NCBI GenBank assembly: GCA_043732305.1 | Contig: JAYTHU010000102.1 | Location: 1 to 64,000 of the forward strand | Reading direction: 5' to 3' | DNA: 64,000 bases | Origin: Oligoflexia bacterium | Lineage (GTDB): Bacteria > Bdellovibrionota > Bdellovibrionia > JABDDW01 | Shown here: positions 32,607 through 41,332 of the stretch, piece by piece | How the letters are laid out: each line of letters begins with the position of its first letter | How positions within the stretch are numbered: position 1 is the stretch's first letter | Position numbers and translations under genes: made by a program | Notes under the pieces: generated by a model | Database searches by the model: none | Told to the model about the DNA's origin: nothing | The model's input: only the letters and a program-made list of their open reading frames with translations

Positions 32607-33785
32607 TTAGCGGCGTTGGAATGCGCGATATTTGGAGCCGCCGTTGGCGCCGCTGGAGCTGAAGTCGAAATGGGGATCGAAGCTGAGGTCGATAGTGAGA
32701 CTGGCGATGTAACGGCGATCTTCGGTTTGCCCTGCATAAGCTCCGAGTTCGGTGCCGTAAGTAGCAAAATCTACAGAAAAGTATTTTAAATTTATTGACG
32801 CCCCGGCAGTGTAATAACCTTGATTGACTCCACCTCGAATCGAAAACAGAGAAAATTCCAATTCTACTCCCATATGTAAAAGCATTCCAATTTGCTCGCC
32901 CGCCAGTGTCATGTGTTGGAAATCAATTGCAGGACGAATTTTCAACATTGGTAAATCAAAAGTTGAGGAAAAACCAAGGGTCACATTGTTGTCCATTGGT
33001 GGAGGTGCCACACTTCCAACGGATGGAACAAAAAATGTTTGTCCAATGTTTTGCCAAACAAAAGTCAGGGCAGGATGAACTCCACCTGGAGCTTCTAAAA
33101 GAAATGCGGCATCAGCGCCATAGCCGATCCCGTAGTTGTTCAACAGGCTAGTGAGGTACGCATTTGAAAGACTGGCCACTGTTCCGGGTCCAAGCTTTAA
33201 ACTTCCGCCATACCGCGTGACTCTTTTAAACGCTATTCCGAAACGTAAAATATCGGGTATAAGTGGCAGAGCAAAACCAGTGACAATTCCATTATCGTTC
33301 GTCACGGTTAGAGTGACATTGGAGTAAGCAGGATTGTGCAAAATAAAACTCAAATTTAAAAAATCAAATCCTGCAAATCCGAAATCGCTCATAGAAAAAG
33401 CGAAACAATCTGCAAGACCCATCCAAATTTGTTTACCATAAAATTGTTGAATAATTGTGGCGTAATTTGAAGATGTCGCATTCTGATAATTCGTAAAAGC
33501 ATCTATTGCGTCAGTCCCCACTTGTAATCCAACCAATGCCAAGTGAAACCCTTTAACACGGTCCAAAGCCGCAGGATTATAAAAAAGCGCGTTGTGATCA
33601 TCCACCACGGCAGAGAATGCGTTTCCCATTCCAGCAGCGCGTGCGTTTATGTAATTTTCGCGAATCTCTTGAGCTTGAACTTTAGAATTGAAAATGAAAA
33701 ACGAAAATAAAAATAGCGATGATAAAAAAAGCGTAAATACGAAATGACGTCTTCTGCAGTTTTTAAAAAAGGCACTCACGGGCAT
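32607..33785 (-). CDS. TraF/FadL/PorV-like outer-membrane beta-barrel, paralog A
   Basis: Signal peptide. ARAAGMGNAFSAVVDDHNALFYNPAAL plug motif. C-terminal GVNQGYYTAG...ATYGTELG...EDRRY. Confidence 0.8.
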   Translation of the reverse strand: MPVSAFFKNCRRRHFVFTLFLSSLFLFSFFIFNSKVQAQEIRENYINARAAGMGNAFSAVVDDHNALFYNPAALDRVKGFHLALVGLQVGTDAIDAFTNYQNATSSNYATIIQQFYGKQIWMGLADCFAFSMSDFGFAGFDFLNLSFILHNPAYSNVTLTVTNDNGIVTGFALPLIPDILRFGIAFKRVTRYGGSLKLGPGTVASLSNAYLTSLLNNYGIGYGADAAFLLEAPGGVHPALTFVWQNIGQTFFVPSVGSVAPPPMDNNVTLGFSSTFDLPMLKIRPAIDFQHMTLAGEQIGMLLHMGVELEFSLFSIRGGVNQGYYTAGASINLKYFSVDFATYGTELGAYAGQTEDRRYIASLTIDLSFDPHFDFSSSGANGGSKYRAFQRR

Positions 33786-34657
33786 AAAACATCAATTATA
33801 AGGCCCGTGCCGCCAGGACAAAATGCAGGTGCCACAGGCGTCGCGGTGATCTGACAATATGGTTTGTTGTAGGGAGCTGCTAACCCTACATTTAAATTTG
33901 ATTCACCAACCAAAGTGCGAGCAACCCTAATCATCGTTGGAGTCACACTAGCAGTCGTAGTCACTGAGCAAGCGCCGGGGGCCGAGACTTGAATTTGAGT
34001 GCATGCTGCCAGAAGTGCCGTCAAACTTTGCCCAACTACACCTGCGCCAATGGCCGTCACTGAATCGACAATATTTCCGATGGCCGTTATGACCTCAGCA
34101 CCTTGCGCAGAGGAAAGCTGAGTGCAATTGTTAAAAGTCGCCGTGACAGATCCAGTGTTCAAAGGATCTGCGGTTGAAGCCAACATTGTTCCGAGCTTCG
34201 CAATTTCCACAAAAAGCATGAAGGTATTTTCATCCACCGTGCGAAGAGAAGCCGAAGCCCCAATACTCAGAATAAGGTTTTGGGCGGTCACTTCATCAGA
34301 ATAATTTGCTGCTGTTGATCCTCTGAAAGCAGTAAGTAGTTGAGAAAACAAACTGCTCGAACTTGAACCCAAATTTTGCAGATTTTGTGCAAGTGAGAGC
34401 ATGGACAGTCCGCCTCTTCCCGCATAAGCACTAGCAAGTAAAACTATATTAGTTCGAGTGGCTTGCCCCGCTACAGAGAGGGTCTGCCATTTTTGAATGG
34501 CATCATACCAAAGTGAAGCGTCCACCAATTTTTGGATGTCGATTGAGATTACGGCATCCGAATTTTTAATAGCGATTTCACTGTATAGATTGCAACCACC
34601 AACGTTTGTTAGCGCAATCAAAGTCATCAGAAAAAGAAGTCCAAAGGATCGCTTCAT
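33776..34657 (-). CDS. Ala/Ser/Thr-rich lipoprotein with C-terminal cysteines
   Basis: MKRSFGLLFLMTLIALTNVGGC lipobox, LASAYAGRGG helix motif, six further Cys. Confidence 0.8.
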   Translation of the reverse strand: MKRSFGLLFLMTLIALTNVGGCNLYSEIAIKNSDAVISIDIQKLVDASLWYDAIQKWQTLSVAGQATRTNIVLLASAYAGRGGLSMLSLAQNLQNLGSSSSSLFSQLLTAFRGSTAANYSDEVTAQNLILSIGASASLRTVDENTFMLFVEIAKLGTMLASTADPLNTGSVTATFNNCTQLSSAQGAEVITAIGNIVDSVTAIGAGVVGQSLTALLAACTQIQVSAPGACSVTTTASVTPTMIRVARTLVGESNLNVGLAAPYNKPYCQITATPVAPAFCPGGTGLIIDVLCP

Positions 34658-34737
34658 AGACTTAAATTTTAAAGGATTTTGACGAAAACAGGGAGTCAAT
34701 TGATTGGCGTAGACCAACGCGGCTTAAGAAATTTGGC

Positions 34738-35841
34738 TTAGAATCTGAATCCATAACGGGCCACAAAGCGGCGATCTTCTGTAAACTTCGGATAAACGCC
34801 AATTTCCTCGCCGTAAGTCGTGATCTGGACTTGCTGACCACCAAGATCAACTTCTATTCCAGCAGTGTAATAACCTTCATTATATCCTGCGCGCATATAA
34901 AAAACGTCAGAGAAATTAACTTCTGCACCAGCATGAATATTGCGGATGATACTTTGACTGTAGGGGTTTTGAAGATCACTAAATTGCACAGTGAATGATG
35001 CGCGAGTGTGTTGTCCATCATATGGAAAAATGGCCATTCCCGCGTCCACTTTTTGCATTTGCGGAGGTGGACGAGTAGTTGTGGTGTAGATCATTCCATT
35101 TCCTAGAGTGAAATTGGTGTTGCCTACATCATGAGCCACAACCGTGATTGTTGGTAGCATTGCCCAAGGTGCGGTCAGCATGATACTCCCATCCCATCCA
35201 ACTCCAGTTCCCTCACTTGCTAAATTTGGAATTGAAAGTCCGGTAGCTGATTGCGCGACCGTTGTCGAAATATAAACACGATTGTCTACCTTGCCCATGA
35301 TGCCAATTTTAAGTCGGCCTTCCCAGAGCCTGAAGCAATAACCAATAGCCGCAGCATAATCATTGATATAATTATACTGCATCGTCCCTGTTGCAGAGGA
35401 ATATTGCGCATTTAAACTGTAGTTGGCTAGTCCGCCGATCGCAAAATTTCTCATGACGAGTGTCGGTTGAACTTGAAATTTAGCGTGAAGATTTTTATCA
35501 GGATTTTTCACCGCTAAATTTAAAAGGGCGTTTGGATCTTGCGCTCCGGCGTAGCTGCTCAGATTTGCGCCGATTGCGGAAACAGTGCTGTAATTGGTTT
35601 CTAGTTCAGGATTTATCAAAGATAAATATGTCCCGCGCACTTTTCCTAGCCCTGCGGGATTGACAAAAAGTGCCGTCTCATCATCAACTATTGCAACACC
35701 CGCTCCGCCCATGGCTTCATCACGGGCGCTGCGGAAGTTTTGCGTTTTTTCTTGCGCGACAGCGCCCGTTCCCACAAGCAGAATAAGAACAATTATCGTG
35801 TTCGAAAGTATTGGGAATTTCAATTTCTGCGTTATTTCCAT
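34738..35841 (-). CDS. TraF/FadL/PorV-like outer-membrane beta-barrel, paralog B
   Basis: SARDEAMGGAGVAIVDDETALFVNPAGL, GYNEGYYTAG...TTYGEEIG...EDRRF, terminal YGFRF. Confidence 0.82.
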   Translation of the reverse strand: MEITQKLKFPILSNTIIVLILLVGTGAVAQEKTQNFRSARDEAMGGAGVAIVDDETALFVNPAGLGKVRGTYLSLINPELETNYSTVSAIGANLSSYAGAQDPNALLNLAVKNPDKNLHAKFQVQPTLVMRNFAIGGLANYSLNAQYSSATGTMQYNYINDYAAAIGYCFRLWEGRLKIGIMGKVDNRVYISTTVAQSATGLSIPNLASEGTGVGWDGSIMLTAPWAMLPTITVVAHDVGNTNFTLGNGMIYTTTTRPPPQMQKVDAGMAIFPYDGQHTRASFTVQFSDLQNPYSQSIIRNIHAGAEVNFSDVFYMRAGYNEGYYTAGIEVDLGGQQVQITTYGEEIGVYPKFTEDRRFVARYGFRF

Positions 35842-35847
35842 AACTTC

Positions 35848-35874
35848 TTATCGGTGAATATGAACAATTCTAGC
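35848..35874 (-). promoter_or_regulatory. Possible sigma28-like promoter for the barrel B-lipoprotein-barrel A operon
   Basis: ACCGATAA -10-like box 6 nt upstream of ATG 35841. The -35 match is weak. Confidence 0.35.
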
Positions 35875-36017
35875 CGTCAGTCATATGACAGGACTAAGAT
35901 CCAAATTTTCGTCTCTACAAACTAGTTGAAATTAGAAAATCAATGCGGTTACTCTAATAATACTGCTCAGCACATCGTGTTCGGCAAAAACTATCAACTT
36001 TGCAGAACGGGGACAAA

Positions 36018-36761
36018 ATGACACGTGAATCGAAAAAAACAAATCTCAAAACAACATTGAAAACTTTTGCAGTGATTGCGACATGTGCGATTGCCCTCAC
36101 CGCGTGCGAAACGGCCGAGCAAAATAGCACCGCTCAGGCTCTCACCTGCGTGAACAATGCGGCAAAACTTTCTGCGACTGATCCCGTGACTGCAGCTACA
36201 AACGCAACCGCATGCGAAGCTATTACTTCAAAGCTAGTCAATTCGGCAGAGGCAGCTAAGATCGGTTTCTCCGCAGTGCTTTTGATGTCCCAGAAATTTA
36301 GCCAAATTCAAAACCTTGTGAATGCTCTGAAACAAACCAACAACACGCTAGCCACTGGATTTACGTTTCTGATTTTTGCTGGCGGTTCCGGCAATATCGG
36401 TGATCCCAATTATACTAAAATGCAAACGTACGCTAATCGTTCCGCCAATATTGGCATTTTAGAAGTTTGGTCTATATTCTCAACAGCAAATTTAATTGCA
36501 AGCCTTGGATCACTCACAGCCACTCCGACTCAAGCTCAAGTGACAACGGCTGTAGCGGCACTCAACCCCGCAAATGCGAATATTTCAGGTACACCAGAAA
36601 ATGCTTTAGCAACTGCAGTACTTACAGCTCAACAAAATGCATGTTCAGGATCGGGCAGCAGCTCCACCACTTGCGCAGCCCTAACCAAAGCAATTGGCAG
36701 CGGAGCCACTCCCTCATCAGTGATTTCTGCTCTTCAGGCATACGTAGCCGCCGGGAATTGA
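36018..36761 (+). CDS. Ala/Thr-rich helical lipoprotein with four additional Cys
   Basis: ATG follows GGGGA. Lipobox LTAC. Divergent from barrel B. Confidence 0.8.
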   Translation: MTRESKKTNLKTTLKTFAVIATCAIALTACETAEQNSTAQALTCVNNAAKLSATDPVTAATNATACEAITSKLVNSAEAAKIGFSAVLLMSQKFSQIQNLVNALKQTNNTLATGFTFLIFAGGSGNIGDPNYTKMQTYANRSANIGILEVWSIFSTANLIASLGSLTATPTQAQVTTAVAALNPANANISGTPENALATAVLTAQQNACSGSGSSSTTCAALTKAIGSGATPSSVISALQAYVAAGN

Positions 36762-36858
36762 TTGCCCTTCGCAGCCGCAGGCAGCTAAGGAAAACTTTGT
36801 CTCGAGTTTGAAATCATTACAGACGACTATCACGTCATGTTTTGGTAATGTCACACCT

Positions 36859-39201
36859 ATGAAAAATATATTTTTAGCGCTGTCCGTGATGGTCATATCT
36901 GTCACTATTTGTGAAACGTCGTTTGCAGAAGAATGTAAGGCAAAACTAAGTCATCTGAATCCTAAAATTTATGATCAAGTTTACCTAGATAATAACCCGA
37001 CTGAAACGCCTTATCGTTTCGATTCAATTCGTAAATCACAAGATGACCAACCTGCCGAACAATTGTGGGTCGTGAACAGTGCAGACTATTCGCCAACTGC
37101 TGATCAGGAATTGATTAAAGCTGGATACACGGGTGTGCGAATTTTAAATCCAACAGACAAAGAGATTCTCGAACACTCCGATTTTTTATTAGTTCCCGAA
37201 GTCACTCGCACGATCATGATCGCCCCAAACTCAGAAGAAGACTGGGTCGCTCAAATGCAAACAACAAAAGCTCGCACCAACCTCAAATCTAAACTTAAAA
37301 AGAGCCTCGCCGTTGATGGTGAAGGCAAGCGCGCAGTCACCACTGAATTGGCCAATCTAACTTTGGCGGACTATTCCAAATGGTACACAGAACTTTATCT
37401 TCCAGAAATCATTGGCGGCAAAGAAGGTGGCATGGCCGCCTGGGGGGATGTTTCTCAGTACGCAGCCGAGAAAAAAATTGATATCACCGACGGCAACCTC
37501 AACAAAAAAGTACCCGATCTTCATCGTGTATTTTTCTACTCCAAAGATCATAAACTCATTGGTGGAATGCTATTTCGTGAAATGCACAGCCAAGGATTTA
37601 TTAGCGTTGGAGCTGCGGCCTTTGAATCCAATGCACGCAAACTTTACAATCTTCCCGTTCGCGGATTTAGTGAAATTTTTAATGAAGTGCATCGCTTGGG
37701 TTTCAAATACTTGAGCTATGGAAAAGATTTTTATTATGGCGGTGATTTAAGCATTGGCCTCATGCAAAACAAAGCTAGTCTTGGAATGAGAATCATTATT
37801 CCTCTTCCTTCCGATGAAGGAAACTTCTATCTCACCAAATATTTCTCCAACGCTCCCGCTCGTCTTGGTGCGAGCAAATACGAAAATAAAACTTTCCCTG
37901 GAATGGTTTTCTACGCTATTCGCGGAACTGGTCAAGAGCGTTTGAAAAACTATCATCTCATGCAAGCGTCCCAAGTTGCGACCCGAACAATTCCCGAAGC
38001 AATGTTAGCTGTCGAACAAACAATGGCGGTTCATCAGATTTTAGCAGCTGATAATTCACCTAAGATTGAAGTACCGCAAGGGCTGACGCATGTAAAAATT
38101 CAATCGGTGTCGGCTCTAACCCCTCACAAGCAATATCCTGCACTCTCGACCAGCGGTGGATTAGGTTTCCGAAATTATATATCTGGACATGTTGTATCCA
38201 CAAGTGTGGATATGGCCAATAACTACACTGCGCAAGGTTTTCTGGATTGGGCACTTAGCGTCATGCCAGTCAAAGATTTAGCTCAGGCTAAAACAATCTT
38301 AGCTAAGTTTGTGAGTTTTAAAGAAGATTACGCTCACCCAATAATGCGTCCCATGTTTTTGATCGATGAAAAAAGCGAGATTGAAAATCAAGCAACTCCT
38401 GAAGCCAAGCTTGCAAAGTACAACGAACTCATCATGAAAAATCCATTGGTTGATTTTGAAAAAGGCTTGGATCAAGATCCGTTTTTGGTTCCAATGATTG
38501 AGCGGGCTCGATTCAACCCGGCACGCGTGCGACCGATGGCTATGAATCTCACCAAATCGGATGAAACCCCTTTTCCACTTATTAGCTTCTATTCCAATCA
38601 AGGTTACACGCATCCTATCGAACGCGGCATGCTCAAGAGTAAGGTACTTCAGGCTTCTGGCGTGTACTCCAAGCTTCAGTATGAGGCCCGTCGAAAATAT
38701 CGTGCAGGCGTGAGATACAGATTTAATTTTGACTTCGATCAAAGTCTTAACAATCTGAGCGGACAAGAGCGAAAAATGCAATTGAGCACTCAAAATCGTT
38801 ATAAAAACCCTGAGCTTTTAAAGAAAATGAAAATGCTTTATGACCACGGTCAGGCCTTCACATTTGAAGCTATCGATGAGTCTGTGACCCCACACAAAGT
38901 GTTGGGTGGCATTTTGGGGCTGATCACCGGAAAACTTATAAGCATCGACACCACTATTGGAAATGTCGGAAATATTGATTCCGCACGCATCACGGGAATG
39001 GCACTTTCTGATATTGCAGCTGAACAAGGTTTGGAATTTCTGGATATGGGAATGGTGAGTAATTATTCGAAGAGCTTGCGAGCAGGCTATTACCCTCAAG
39101 TAGAATTTCTTTCATTCCTGAATTCTCCAGAATTCAAATCCGATAGCAAATTTAAATTGCCCGCAGAATGGGTTCCGCCGGGAATCAATCCAGGAAAATA
39201 A
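36859..39201 (+). CDS. Secreted protein with a FemABX/GNAT-like domain and a C-terminal Leu/Phe-tRNA-protein transferase (Aat)-like domain
   Basis: Signal peptide MKNIFLALSVMVISVTICETSFA. Fem/GNAT-like segment KARTNLKSKLKK...LIGGML...GFKYLSYG...GLMQNKASLG. Aat-like segment FNFDFDQ...LYDHGQAFTFE...LGGILGL..G...SARI...GLEFLDMG...SKSLRA...EFL. Confidence 0.7.
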   Translation: MKNIFLALSVMVISVTICETSFAEECKAKLSHLNPKIYDQVYLDNNPTETPYRFDSIRKSQDDQPAEQLWVVNSADYSPTADQELIKAGYTGVRILNPTDKEILEHSDFLLVPEVTRTIMIAPNSEEDWVAQMQTTKARTNLKSKLKKSLAVDGEGKRAVTTELANLTLADYSKWYTELYLPEIIGGKEGGMAAWGDVSQYAAEKKIDITDGNLNKKVPDLHRVFFYSKDHKLIGGMLFREMHSQGFISVGAAAFESNARKLYNLPVRGFSEIFNEVHRLGFKYLSYGKDFYYGGDLSIGLMQNKASLGMRIIIPLPSDEGNFYLTKYFSNAPARLGASKYENKTFPGMVFYAIRGTGQERLKNYHLMQASQVATRTIPEAMLAVEQTMAVHQILAADNSPKIEVPQGLTHVKIQSVSALTPHKQYPALSTSGGLGFRNYISGHVVSTSVDMANNYTAQGFLDWALSVMPVKDLAQAKTILAKFVSFKEDYAHPIMRPMFLIDEKSEIENQATPEAKLAKYNELIMKNPLVDFEKGLDQDPFLVPMIERARFNPARVRPMAMNLTKSDETPFPLISFYSNQGYTHPIERGMLKSKVLQASGVYSKLQYEARRKYRAGVRYRFNFDFDQSLNNLSGQERKMQLSTQNRYKNPELLKKMKMLYDHGQAFTFEAIDESVTPHKVLGGILGLITGKLISIDTTIGNVGNIDSARITGMALSDIAAEQGLEFLDMGMVSNYSKSLRAGYYPQVEFLSFLNSPEFKSDSKFKLPAEWVPPGINPGK

Positions 39202-39427
39202 CGAGGCAACCCTCGTTCTTTTTCCCGTTGACCATTTCGAATTTCCACTGATACCCAGCAAGCTTCAGATATTTTATTGCGATTTTTTGAACGACCCCGG
39301 TTCCTTTGCCCGTCATAATGCGGGCACTGGAAAGGTTGCCACCGGAAACTTTCACCAAGAATTTGTCGAGAGCATCTTCAACTTCATCAGATTTAAAGCC
39401 ATGCAAGTCGAGTAAATCTTTAGCCAT
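39185..39427 (-). CDS. Stand-alone Smr/MutS2-C domain protein
   Basis: LDLHG, ALDKFL, IMTGKGTGV, NEGCLVIFL. Confidence 0.9.
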   Translation of the reverse strand: MAKDLLDLHGFKSDEVEDALDKFLVKVSGGNLSSARIMTGKGTGVVQKIAIKYLKLAGYQWKFEMVNGKKNEGCLVIFLD

Positions 39428-39450
39428 CTTCAAACCTCAACCGAAAAAAT

Positions 39451-40590
39451 TTATAAATCCAAACTCATTTTCGCAATGTATCGGCGATTCTGATTGGGAG
39501 ATCCGCTGGTTCCGATTTCTTCAGCGTAGGTGGCTAAGTCGAGACGAAATATAGAAACTTGCCCGCTGACTCCGGCAGAGACATAACCTTCGGAGACGCC
39601 CACACTATAACTTCCGGTGAGCCAGTTAAAGGCTTTCCAAAAGAGTTCGGCACCCACATGGGAACACTTAATGGCATTTGCATATTGAGTTCCCATGTCA
39701 TGCTCTTCGATCGCAAAACGGGGTTTGAAAACCCAGAATTCCGGGAGATCAAATTTTGCACCGACGTCAAATCGTCTTTGCAAATTAGAGGTGGTCACCA
39801 CAGACTGTTTTGAAATCAAATGAGCATCGCCAAAAAATCCTTCATCCAAAACGTTTCTCACCGCGACACCAATGGTGGGCTTTGCATATTTCAGCCAAGA
39901 GAAAATTCCGGAATCGGCAATAGGCAATGTCCAAAGATATCCAAAGTCGAAATCCACAGTCATGCCTTCTTGAGCATCAGATGCTTGAAGTAAATTTGTG
40001 CTTTGAGCGAGGTCGAATACGGAAACGACTTTATCTATGTAAGCGCGATAAACAATTTTAGGAGAGACACCGATGTTCATTGTTTTATCGTCATTCAAAT
40101 TCCAAGCTTTTGAGAATTGCAGCGTGGAATCTTGAATCGCGAGCAATCCAACGGAAGCACCCGCCGTGGCTGCAATGTCTGCCTCAACTGAAACATCAAC
40201 GGGAATAAATGCGATTCCCCATGAAGGCCAAACCCAAATTCCACCCACTTGAACGCGCGTCGCATAGTGATTACCCATGTCGTTAAGCAAAGCATTAGTG
40301 AGCTTCACCGGATCTGAACCTGCGCCACTGAGATCACTATAAAGATTCATAATCGAGGGGGTTCCACCAGCTTGAATGCCTAGGTTCAAATCGTGAGATT
40401 CAAACCGAGCAAGGCCTGCGGGGTTATAAAACATTGCTTCATAGCTATCCGTCATGGATGTGCCAACCATGCCTCGGCCAGCAACACGGGCGGAAATGTA
40501 GGGTTGATGGAGATAAAAACTCTCTGCTGCGCGAACTTCTTGGCTCGACGCCATTAACAACAGACAAAGCGTAAATAATATTTTGAACAC
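39451..40590 (-). CDS. TraF/FadL/PorV-like outer-membrane beta-barrel, paralog C
   Basis: SARVAGRG...DSYEAMFYNPAGL, GVSEGYVSAG...ATYAEEIG...NRRY. Confidence 0.8.
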   Translation of the reverse strand: MFKILFTLCLLLMASSQEVRAAESFYLHQPYISARVAGRGMVGTSMTDSYEAMFYNPAGLARFESHDLNLGIQAGGTPSIMNLYSDLSGAGSDPVKLTNALLNDMGNHYATRVQVGGIWVWPSWGIAFIPVDVSVEADIAATAGASVGLLAIQDSTLQFSKAWNLNDDKTMNIGVSPKIVYRAYIDKVVSVFDLAQSTNLLQASDAQEGMTVDFDFGYLWTLPIADSGIFSWLKYAKPTIGVAVRNVLDEGFFGDAHLISKQSVVTTSNLQRRFDVGAKFDLPEFWVFKPRFAIEEHDMGTQYANAIKCSHVGAELFWKAFNWLTGSYSVGVSEGYVSAGVSGQVSIFRLDLATYAEEIGTSGSPNQNRRYIAKMSLDL

Positions 40591-40660
40591 CCAGGTCCCC
40601 CGTGTTTAAATGTTTTAAGGTAACCATATAAATCTGCACGAGAGGTCGAGTGAATTGCAA

Positions 40661-41332
40661 ATGAAAAAACTTCTTTTTATAATCACTCTAGGACTAGCCA
40701 TCTTCACCCCTTCTTGGAGTTTGATTTGTCTAGCGGCTTCGCCTGATGAAAACGGAGCAATCACGCCCAAAACGCAAGTCATGGATATTGAAAACACTCC
40801 CGCAGAAACAAAGAGCACCAGTGGAGAAGCGGATCTGGAAAAAAATATGATGCAGAGCACGGCTCCGACCAATCCAAACAAGAAATACGTTGCTAGCCCT
40901 TTGCAGTTTTTTTACTCCGACACTCAATCGCTGAGCGTTTATCTTGGTGCGGCATACTCCAGCCAACCCGCAGTTGTTTATGGTTTAGGAGGATTCAGTT
41001 ACATGCTGCCAAGCCAAAATAGATTTCATTTAGAAGCGGCTTTTGACTCATTGGGCGCGCAAGAAGCACACTTTAGATTGATGGCAAAATGGTACAGTGG
41101 AATTGCCGGAAAGATCAGATCTTACTACAATTTAGGTTTGGGGTTACGAATGCTTTCCAACGACAACTTGGTCGTGATTCTTTCTTGGACTCGATTTTTT
41201 CTACAAGCTGGCGGAGGTTTAGAGTGGAGTTTCACTCAGAATCTTTCATTGCGTGCTGAAGCTTTTACGGCGGGAGATCTAAACTCAAATGCTTACTTGG
41301 GTTTGCTCGCCGGAATTTCTATTGGCTTTTAA
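40661..41332 (+). CDS. Small outer-membrane beta-barrel protein
   Basis: Signal peptide, disordered linker, about 8 amphipathic strands, terminal GISIGF. Confidence 0.75.
   Translation: MKKLLFIITLGLAIFTPSWSLICLAASPDENGAITPKTQVMDIENTPAETKSTSGEADLEKNMMQSTAPTNPNKKYVASPLQFFYSDTQSLSVYLGAAYSSQPAVVYGLGGFSYMLPSQNRFHLEAAFDSLGAQEAHFRLMAKWYSGIAGKIRSYYNLGLGLRMLSNDNLVVILSWTRFFLQAGGGLEWSFTQNLSLRAEAFTAGDLNSNAYLGLLAGISIGF

Follow-up and report, generated by a model that had tools for sequence, protein, structure and literature searches.

Why would a bacterium attach a signal peptide to an enzyme whose relatives work with aminoacyl-tRNA, a cytoplasmic substrate? Aat is a cytoplasmic housekeeping tagger, and Fem enzymes are cytoplasmic too. 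The question is raised by P0001, a 780-residue protein encoded on the forward strand at 36859..39201 of the window (the whole 64,000-nucleotide stretch of Oligoflexia DNA that we analysed). Its predicted layout is a leader, a Cys tag, a GNAT/Fem-like module, a linker and an Aat-like domain with an insert. The genome belongs to a six-genome order, and the class is that of Bdellovibrio: the Aat of a class member is 86% identical to Bdellovibrio proteins, and one member of the family described below is labelled Bdellovibrionales. The GC content of the open reading frame equals that of the genome (both 42.7%), and we therefore rejected a recent foreign origin of the gene.

P0001 begins with a predicted Sec/SPase I signal peptide (residues 1–23; 36859..36927, + strand) that has K2, a hydrophobic core and a putative cleavage site after S-F-A. 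Signal peptides were judged throughout by hydropathy and a cleavage-site heuristic. By this measure, the leader has n-, h- and c-regions and an A-x-A-type site, without a lipobox or twin arginine, and its best 9-residue hydropathy is 2.9, compared with at most 1.9 among 14 ordinary Aats. Starting instead at an in-frame TTG at 36808 would lengthen the chain by 17 residues with the hydrophobic core unchanged. Directly behind the predicted cleavage site is a lone-cysteine tag, EEC-KAKL (36928..36957, + strand), which fits a C-x-x-x-L/F pattern and in which Cys26 is the sole Cys of the predicted mature chain. A sequence-only reading of this DNA had described a cleavable-looking signal peptide and had named a mis-called start, betrayed by homologues without a leader, as its weak point. 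We found that such leaders recur in the homologues and that homologues of both halves of P0001 retain them.

The C-terminal half of P0001 resembles Aat. Pfam Leu_Phe_trans (PF03588) matched residues 572–741 of the whole protein with E 1.4e-4 and 21.9 bits against a cut-off of 22.7, and matched residues 405–780 alone with 23.6 bits (cut-off 22.7); TIGR00667 gave no match to P0001. A predicted model of this half, folded from an alignment of 114 rows of which about 15 were ordinary Aats, matched the two-domain GNAT-related fold of Aat (PDB 2DPS, 2Z3L and 2CXA). A 4-row profile built from exported proteins only reached ordinary Aats at E 1e-17, and identity to E. coli Aat is 17%. The Aat-like C-terminal half in the sequence-only reading, for which the absence of a structural match was to be the test, is thus borne out by the model, and the D-M-G that it had read in place of D-C-Q (D729-M-G731) aligns with D186-C-Q188 of E. 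coli.

The domain is preceded by a connecting region (residues ~332–426; 37852..38136, + strand) that lies outside both the BLAST match of the N-terminal module and the match to P0012, the closest relative of the C-terminal half. Within it, residues 405–423 have pLDDT below 50 in the predicted model, and the VIA alignment to the model begins at model residue 18 (residue 422). The N-terminal part of the Aat fold (38137..38250, + strand) runs from G-L-G-F-R-N to G460-F-L-D-W464, corresponding to E. coli residues ~22–49. A family-specific insert of ~105 residues (38251..38571, + strand) then occupies the loop between the equivalents of W49 (W464) and W58 and is confidently modelled, with pLDDT mostly above 85. 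The Aat core (38572..39183, + strand) contains Y583 (W58), R589-G590 (R64), a basic helix at 599–620, Y648 (W111), E670 (E133), D697 (E156) and D729-M-G731 (D186-C-Q188).

P0001 differs from E. coli Aat at the FPW motif (L-D-W464), W111 (Y648), Y42 (T457), Y120 (M657) and E156 (D697), which we take to form the donor-stacking and acceptor site of Aat; ordinary Aats of the class keep each of these in 20–21 of 21 sequences. We examined 99 long members of the family, drawn from the best 150 of 317 profile matches. Among these, W49 was kept in 91, W58 in 91, R64 in 63, G65 in 88, E133 in 80 and D186 in 81, with D186 replaced in 18. In the same 99, position 188 was Gly in 60 (including P0001) and Gln in 16, position 111 was Tyr in 54 and Phe in 24, and position 156 was Asp in 64 and Glu in 23. 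Y42 and Y120, each kept in 20 of 21 ordinary class Aats, were lost in long members, and D186, M189 and the surrounding strand were conserved in most of them. Judged by alignment, the Aat core of the long family is under constraint, with W49, W58, G65, E133 and D186 mostly kept. The basic helix, which presumably contacts the tRNA acceptor stem as in Aat, has a net charge of +5 in P0001 versus +6 in E. coli, and is net positive in all but one of 30 copies (the exception being net 0). Eight short leader-bearing forms, one of which (P0009) carries a wrong label, retained D186 in 8/8 and Q188, W111 and E156 in 7/8 each.

P0001 therefore shares with Aat (E. coli; PF03588, TIGR00667) a predicted fold, Asp186 and a basic helix, but has in addition a signal-like leader, a Cys tag, the insert and an N-terminal module, and it carries Gly for Q188, Tyr for W111 and Asp for E156, with Y42 and Y120 lost. 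Aat is cytoplasmic and acts with ClpS/ClpAP, whereas P0001 bears a leader and ClpS was found in 0/6 genomes of its order. We accordingly describe P0001 as Aat-like by modelled fold, Asp186 and basic helix, and as probably not a member of the Aat family proper, from which it departs at Gln188, the acceptor residues and, by its leader, the cytoplasmic location. Excerpts of one study propose a Gln188/Asp186 proton relay for L/F-transferase, and describe ATE1 as active without this relay and a tRNA-hydroxyl mechanism as an alternative proposal (10.1101/2022.07.20.500667).

How widespread are such proteins? Word-index homologue searches returned only the window's own proteins, and the family surfaced with profile searches only: a profile of four exported proteins picked up 317 cluster representatives (E ≤ 0.001), of which we examined the best 150. 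Among these 150, a signal-like leader followed by Cys was present in 98 of the 117 matches of at least 360 residues; of the other 19, five had a leader without Cys and the rest looked truncated, borderline or long-leadered by eye. In the 99 long members, the fourth residue after the Cys was L or F in 82, no further Cys followed in 76, and a lipobox-like or Tat pattern was seen in none (again within the best 150 of 317). Cys content after the tag was 0.055% in these 99 versus 1.2% in 14 ordinary Aats, a purge that would make sense if the chain crosses an oxidising compartment. Leader and Cys were likewise present in 30/30 hand-picked long or leader-bearing genome copies and in 0/14 ordinary Aats, and long members share only ~20% pairwise identity. 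Several Aat-like proteins (P0092, P0121, P0083, P0089, P0107 and P0119) have signal-like leaders without Cys, and those of P0092 and P0121 are Pro/Ala-rich.

Profile matches occurred in 236 of 301 class genomes, and most of the matches listed were ordinary Aats of ~225 residues. Among the matches listed, at least 11 other genomes had 3–5 each, and this genome had three. Under a strict cut-off, matches were confined to 13 of the 401 phylum genomes, in two of these through short ordinary-length frames, and in the genus holding cultured Bdellovibrio 0/26 genomes matched, which indicates that the long family is not core to known predation. The representative library carries no taxonomy, so its counts do not speak to restriction to predators. 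Scanning contigs from metagenomes and genomes for patterns of the N-terminal module, P0012 and P0018 gave no match. A frame elsewhere in this genome (G000:C31:47082-47288; 69 residues, E 5.9e-7) was set aside as a further family copy; it looks like a short remnant, possibly a decayed copy.

In a FastTree phylogeny of 138 sequences over 189 core columns, rooted on E. coli as a single distant sequence, ordinary class Aats branch off first, the short exported forms follow, and the long forms group in a single clade (support 0.995) on a long branch; the rows for P0009, P0150 and P0130 carry wrong labels. On this tree the long family would derive from ordinary Aat, with short exported forms as the intermediate stage. 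With one distant sequence as the root, the branching order suggests that export came first and active-site remodelling later. The closest relative of the C-terminal half, P0012 (386 residues; 42% identity over 351 residues, E 2e-83), has a leader, Cys and Aat domain only. Other members are fused differently: P0006 carries Aat domains in tandem, and P0073, P0081, P0096 and P0145 have unrelated N-terminal domains, which look alpha/beta-hydrolase-like by eye and for which Pfam gave no such match. Exported and ordinary copies lie side by side in other genomes. In two genomes of one genus (L051:2747-7486 and L052:2567-5192), an exported long Aat-like gene is 1–3 kb from an ordinary aat, an arrangement that might record a local duplication.

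The N-terminal module of P0001 (~residues 63–331; 37045..37851, + strand; core 114–310, 37198-37788) has a basic helix, R..SKLKKS, and a C-terminal motif, LSYG.D..YG...GL...K...G. In phylum samples we found two homologues, one in the N-terminal part of a protein of 1712 residues (G505; E 5.8e-11, 30% over 199 residues) and one alone in a ~370-residue protein (G379; E 7.9e-10). Both open with a leader and C-x-x-x-L/F, as P0001 does, making three of three carriers. The C-terminal region of neither is Aat-like, so the fusion of this module to an Aat domain is seen once. The G505 protein (L180:3436-8571) extends for ~1350 further residues with no Pfam match. Searches with the module drew a blank in 300 further genomes of the class, in PHROGs and in phage records; solved structures gave nothing beyond chance-level rows, and a word-index search found no homologue among shorter proteins.

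The sequence-only reading had assigned this segment to FemABX/Acetyltransf_6. Pfam PF02388, PF04339 and PF13480 did not match P0001 at E up to 10 (another search matched only a different gene), and Pfam gave no match to the three carriers at E up to 1. A single-sequence profile comparison with Fem-like proteins produced no score; a 3-row profile matched eight Fem-like proteins over 136 columns (E 9e-4, HH probability 23%), a result equalled in 0/40 shuffles, after four non-Fem GNAT rows of 12 had been dropped from the comparison set. A structure-database search gave a weak match to the KAT2 GNAT (E 0.04), the Atlas score for the Fem/Acetyltransf_6-like reading was 0.93, and a single-sequence AlphaFold model of mature P0001 had a pLDDT of 33. 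We rejected the module as a second Aat copy, as its profile missed ordinary Aats (31/40 shuffles scored as well). A Fem/Acetyltransf_6-like GNAT fold is likely, with modest support from the profile match. The carriers have no Pfam match and do have an exported leader, which sets them apart from FemABX, Acetyltransf_6 (PF13480) and Sbb17-type aminoacyl-tRNA-dependent GNAT transferases; P0001 is not filed under FemABX. The suggestion that the protein modifies cell-wall precursors depends on this tentative fold. Of the two-fold fusion originally proposed, the Aat-like half stands and the Fem-like half is modestly supported, and the fusion is not a conserved unit: judged by its homologues, P0001 joins two independently mobile exported modules.

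Upstream of P0001 lies a putative lipoprotein gene (36000..36761, + strand) conserved in 4/4 relatives examined; downstream is a small Smr gene (39185-39433), and beyond it a FadL/TodX-like outer-membrane barrel (39451..40590, − strand). The lipoprotein and the barrel belong to a cluster at 32607-36761 and 39451-41332 with three FadL/TodX-like barrels, two putative lipoproteins and a small barrel. The order of the cluster was conserved in 4/4 relatives fetched, and the Aat-like gene was absent from its slot in 4/4. The slot after the lipoprotein holds different genes in different genomes, and one relative has a different lipoprotein there. We considered the cluster as a dedicated exporter and rejected this, because it is kept in 4/4 relatives without the Aat-like gene and was not seen beside other family members. 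Neighbours of those members vary, with occasional tandem copies, a few tagged neighbours and no common partner gene seen; a conserved immunity neighbour was also rejected, as shared neighbours reflected within-genus synteny only.

The tag was also counted across this genome. A matrix trained on the N-termini of 103 family members of other origin marked 25 of 479 signal-bearing proteins, versus 4/478, 4/427 and 3/360 in shifted windows; a looser pattern marked 81 of 752, versus 43, 33 and 26. An overly loose signal-peptide filter took 1085 of 2522 genes, and a tighter one underlies the 479. By these counts, the lone-Cys tag is not private to the Aat-like family. From the tag lists, 53 candidates were hand-picked for Pfam; 15 had matches and 38 had none. 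Eight of the 15 were of cytoplasmic type (adenosine deaminase, PrkA AAA, SpoVR/DUF444, two ATP-grasp, two MoxR and a methyltransferase), two were C1B peptidases, and five were ordinary or mixed exported types, which include a tail-specific protease, WG repeats and Ig domains. At G000:C50:1270-12289 (L064), leader+Cys proteins carry PrkA-type AAA and SpoVR/DUF444/vWA domains, which look like an exported counterpart of a kinase/ATPase gene set that is normally cytoplasmic. Clusters of leader+Cys genes at G000:C188:322-4614 and C212:14825-21933 (L077, L086) encode MoxR AAA+, vWA and transglutaminase-like domains, and a leader+Cys adenosine deaminase, circularly permuted ATP-grasp and methyltransferase-like protein are encoded at G000:C25:36652-37782, C62:104475-106055 and C207:25219-26094, respectively.

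Neither ClpS (0/6) nor an ordinary Aat was found in genomes of the order, and ClpA had no match in this genome. The absences of ClpA, ClpS and Aat in this single genome are soft, because our control, infA (IF-1), was also missed by phmmer and tblastn in this assembly (marker completeness 98%), probably through an assembly gap. The genome has three secretins and no match for VipB, results that pointed to no route into prey cytoplasm. Two divergent Clp-like ATPases are encoded besides ClpB (G000:C62:32460-35213 and C31:36766-39780), the C62 one with a signal-like leader.

The account that we favour, with slightly less than even confidence, is that P0001 is exported cargo that acts with the charged tRNA of another cell and on an altered acceptor. 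Cargo for another cell is suggested by the cytoplasmic location of aminoacyl-tRNA, the outward leader and the lack of a ClpS match at home, and an order in which neither ClpS nor ordinary Aat was found fits a non-self target; an altered acceptor is suggested by the remodelled acceptor-side residues and the insert adjoining the site. From its predicted leader, P0001 would be exported by Sec to the periplasm and passed on by a route that reads, or forms a disulfide with, the Cys tag. In the prey cytoplasm, or in released prey contents, the Aat-fold domain could draw on prey aminoacyl-tRNA and attach amino acids to prey molecules, with an acceptor unlike the basic N-termini used by Aat. The outcome may be mis-tagged prey proteins, for example ones fed to prey ClpS/ClpAP, and the fusion would place a single tag in front of two cargo modules that otherwise move independently. 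We take this uncultured order to be predatory on the strength of its class. Excerpts of the literature describe secreted nucleases, peptidases and peptidoglycan enzymes of Bdellovibrio bacteriovorus as proposed or shown to act on prey, and CapCone-2 of Bdellovibrionota as secreted toxin systems (PMC12419801). Like P0001, these are signal-peptide-bearing and from the same phylum, but in those excerpts they are hydrolases or membrane-directed, and none is an aminoacyl-tRNA-protein transferase or lone-Cys-tagged. The literature searched, which largely excludes subscription papers, yielded nothing on exported Aat-like proteins or on the tag.

Delivery to prey is consistent with a leader and tag conserved across about 100 relatives and all three carriers of the N-terminal module, a modelled Aat fold with Asp186 equivalent and basic helix, short exported forms that keep the Aat site and branch between ordinary Aats and the long clade, multiple copies in variable neighbourhoods with a slot empty of the gene in relatives, and genome-wide enrichment of the same tag, including on ATP-grasp, MoxR/PrkA AAA+, methyltransferase and adenosine deaminase proteins. 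It sits less easily with the changes at Gln188, Y42, Y120 and W111, the lack of long-family matches in 26 genomes of the cultured-Bdellovibrio genus, the majority of tagged candidates without a Pfam match and the ordinary exported types among the matched, and the low HH probability of the N-terminal fold. Moreover, a Sec signal reaches the periplasm only, and this, together with the lone Cys, which suits an intermolecular disulfide, would suit a repurposed envelope protein, disulfide-linked in the producer's own periplasm or surface and tRNA-free, either using another activated acyl or aminoacyl donor or serving as a scaffold. The remodelled site on a long branch and tagged proteins such as the tail-specific protease would be natural for such a protein. 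We nevertheless think it rather unlikely: short exported forms retain the full Aat site and the basic helix persists, the tag is also found on ATP- and SAM-dependent folds that would lack their cofactors in the periplasm, and patchy multi-copy distribution and domain shuffling suit cargo more than housekeeping. We have even less confidence that the leader is an uncleaved anchor or start-call artefact and that the enzyme replaces the missing ordinary Aat in its own cytoplasm, which we regard as very improbable. An order without ordinary Aat, and the 19 of 117 long matches (best 150 of 317) that fail the leader-plus-Cys heuristic, would be explained; however, about 100 divergent proteins and two unrelated modules share A-x-A-type sites and the tag, Cys is purged after the tag, no ClpS was found to read the product, and other genomes hold ordinary and exported copies together.

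If P0001 does reach prey, transfer is not the only activity that it could have there. The donor side is kept (basic helix, D186, W49 and an aromatic residue at 111), acceptor-side Y42 and Y120 are lost, and Q188 is mostly Gly. A tRNA-deacylase or trap, in which water attacks the ester or binding stalls prey translation and frees amino acids, would fit this pattern, as would the second basic helix of the likely Fem-type module. Yet the acidic residue persisting at E156 suggests that an amine acceptor is still read, and the conserved insert points to a defined macromolecule as target; we judge this activity improbable. Competition from EF-Tu counts against it and against delivery of a transferase alike: excerpts of one source give affinities for aminoacyl-tRNA of about 5 nM for EF-Tu versus 200 nM for L/F-transferase (PMC4810233), which also weakens the sequence-only idea that charged tRNA is drained. 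A catalytically dead decoy, whose Aat fold merely binds proteins of the prey (ClpS/ClpA substrates, for example, or translation factors), would account for Gly at 188, replacement of D186 in a minority and the wide divergence, but most members conserve D186, M189 and the nearby strand, and ATE1 acts without the relay, with the tRNA-hydroxyl mechanism proposed; we consider a decoy quite improbable.

Returning to prey-directed cargo, a broader version is possible but doubtful: an undescribed Bdellovibrionota delivery route addressed by a Sec signal and lone-Cys tag may put cofactor-dependent cytoplasmic enzymes into prey, with the Aat-derived cargo spending prey charged tRNA on N-degrons or aminoacyl marks and turning prey proteases on prey. 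The leader-bearing Aat-like family is itself real, seems not to have been described before, varies a known class of enzyme and forms part of a broader pattern of tagged cargo. Its ~100 divergent members imply either that prey tRNA pools are reached by a new effector chemistry or that the fold has a tRNA-free extracytoplasmic job, and either would surprise specialists. The shared Cys offers a testable address, with one residue to alter and a dozen cofactor-dependent passengers to trace, and new transferase specificities could serve N-terminal protein labelling.

Tandem copies were seen in this genome and in others. Elsewhere in this genome (G000:C239:1470-6274; L004), two leader+Cys Aat-like paralogues of 484 and 564 residues lie in tandem, with a leader+Cys ATP-grasp/L-amino-acid-ligase-like gene upstream and an acetyl-CoA synthetase-like gene downstream; a gene of the latter kind also lies beside the copy in G005. 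In a further genome (G178; L039:1374-5323), three leader+Cys Aat-like genes form a tandem array.
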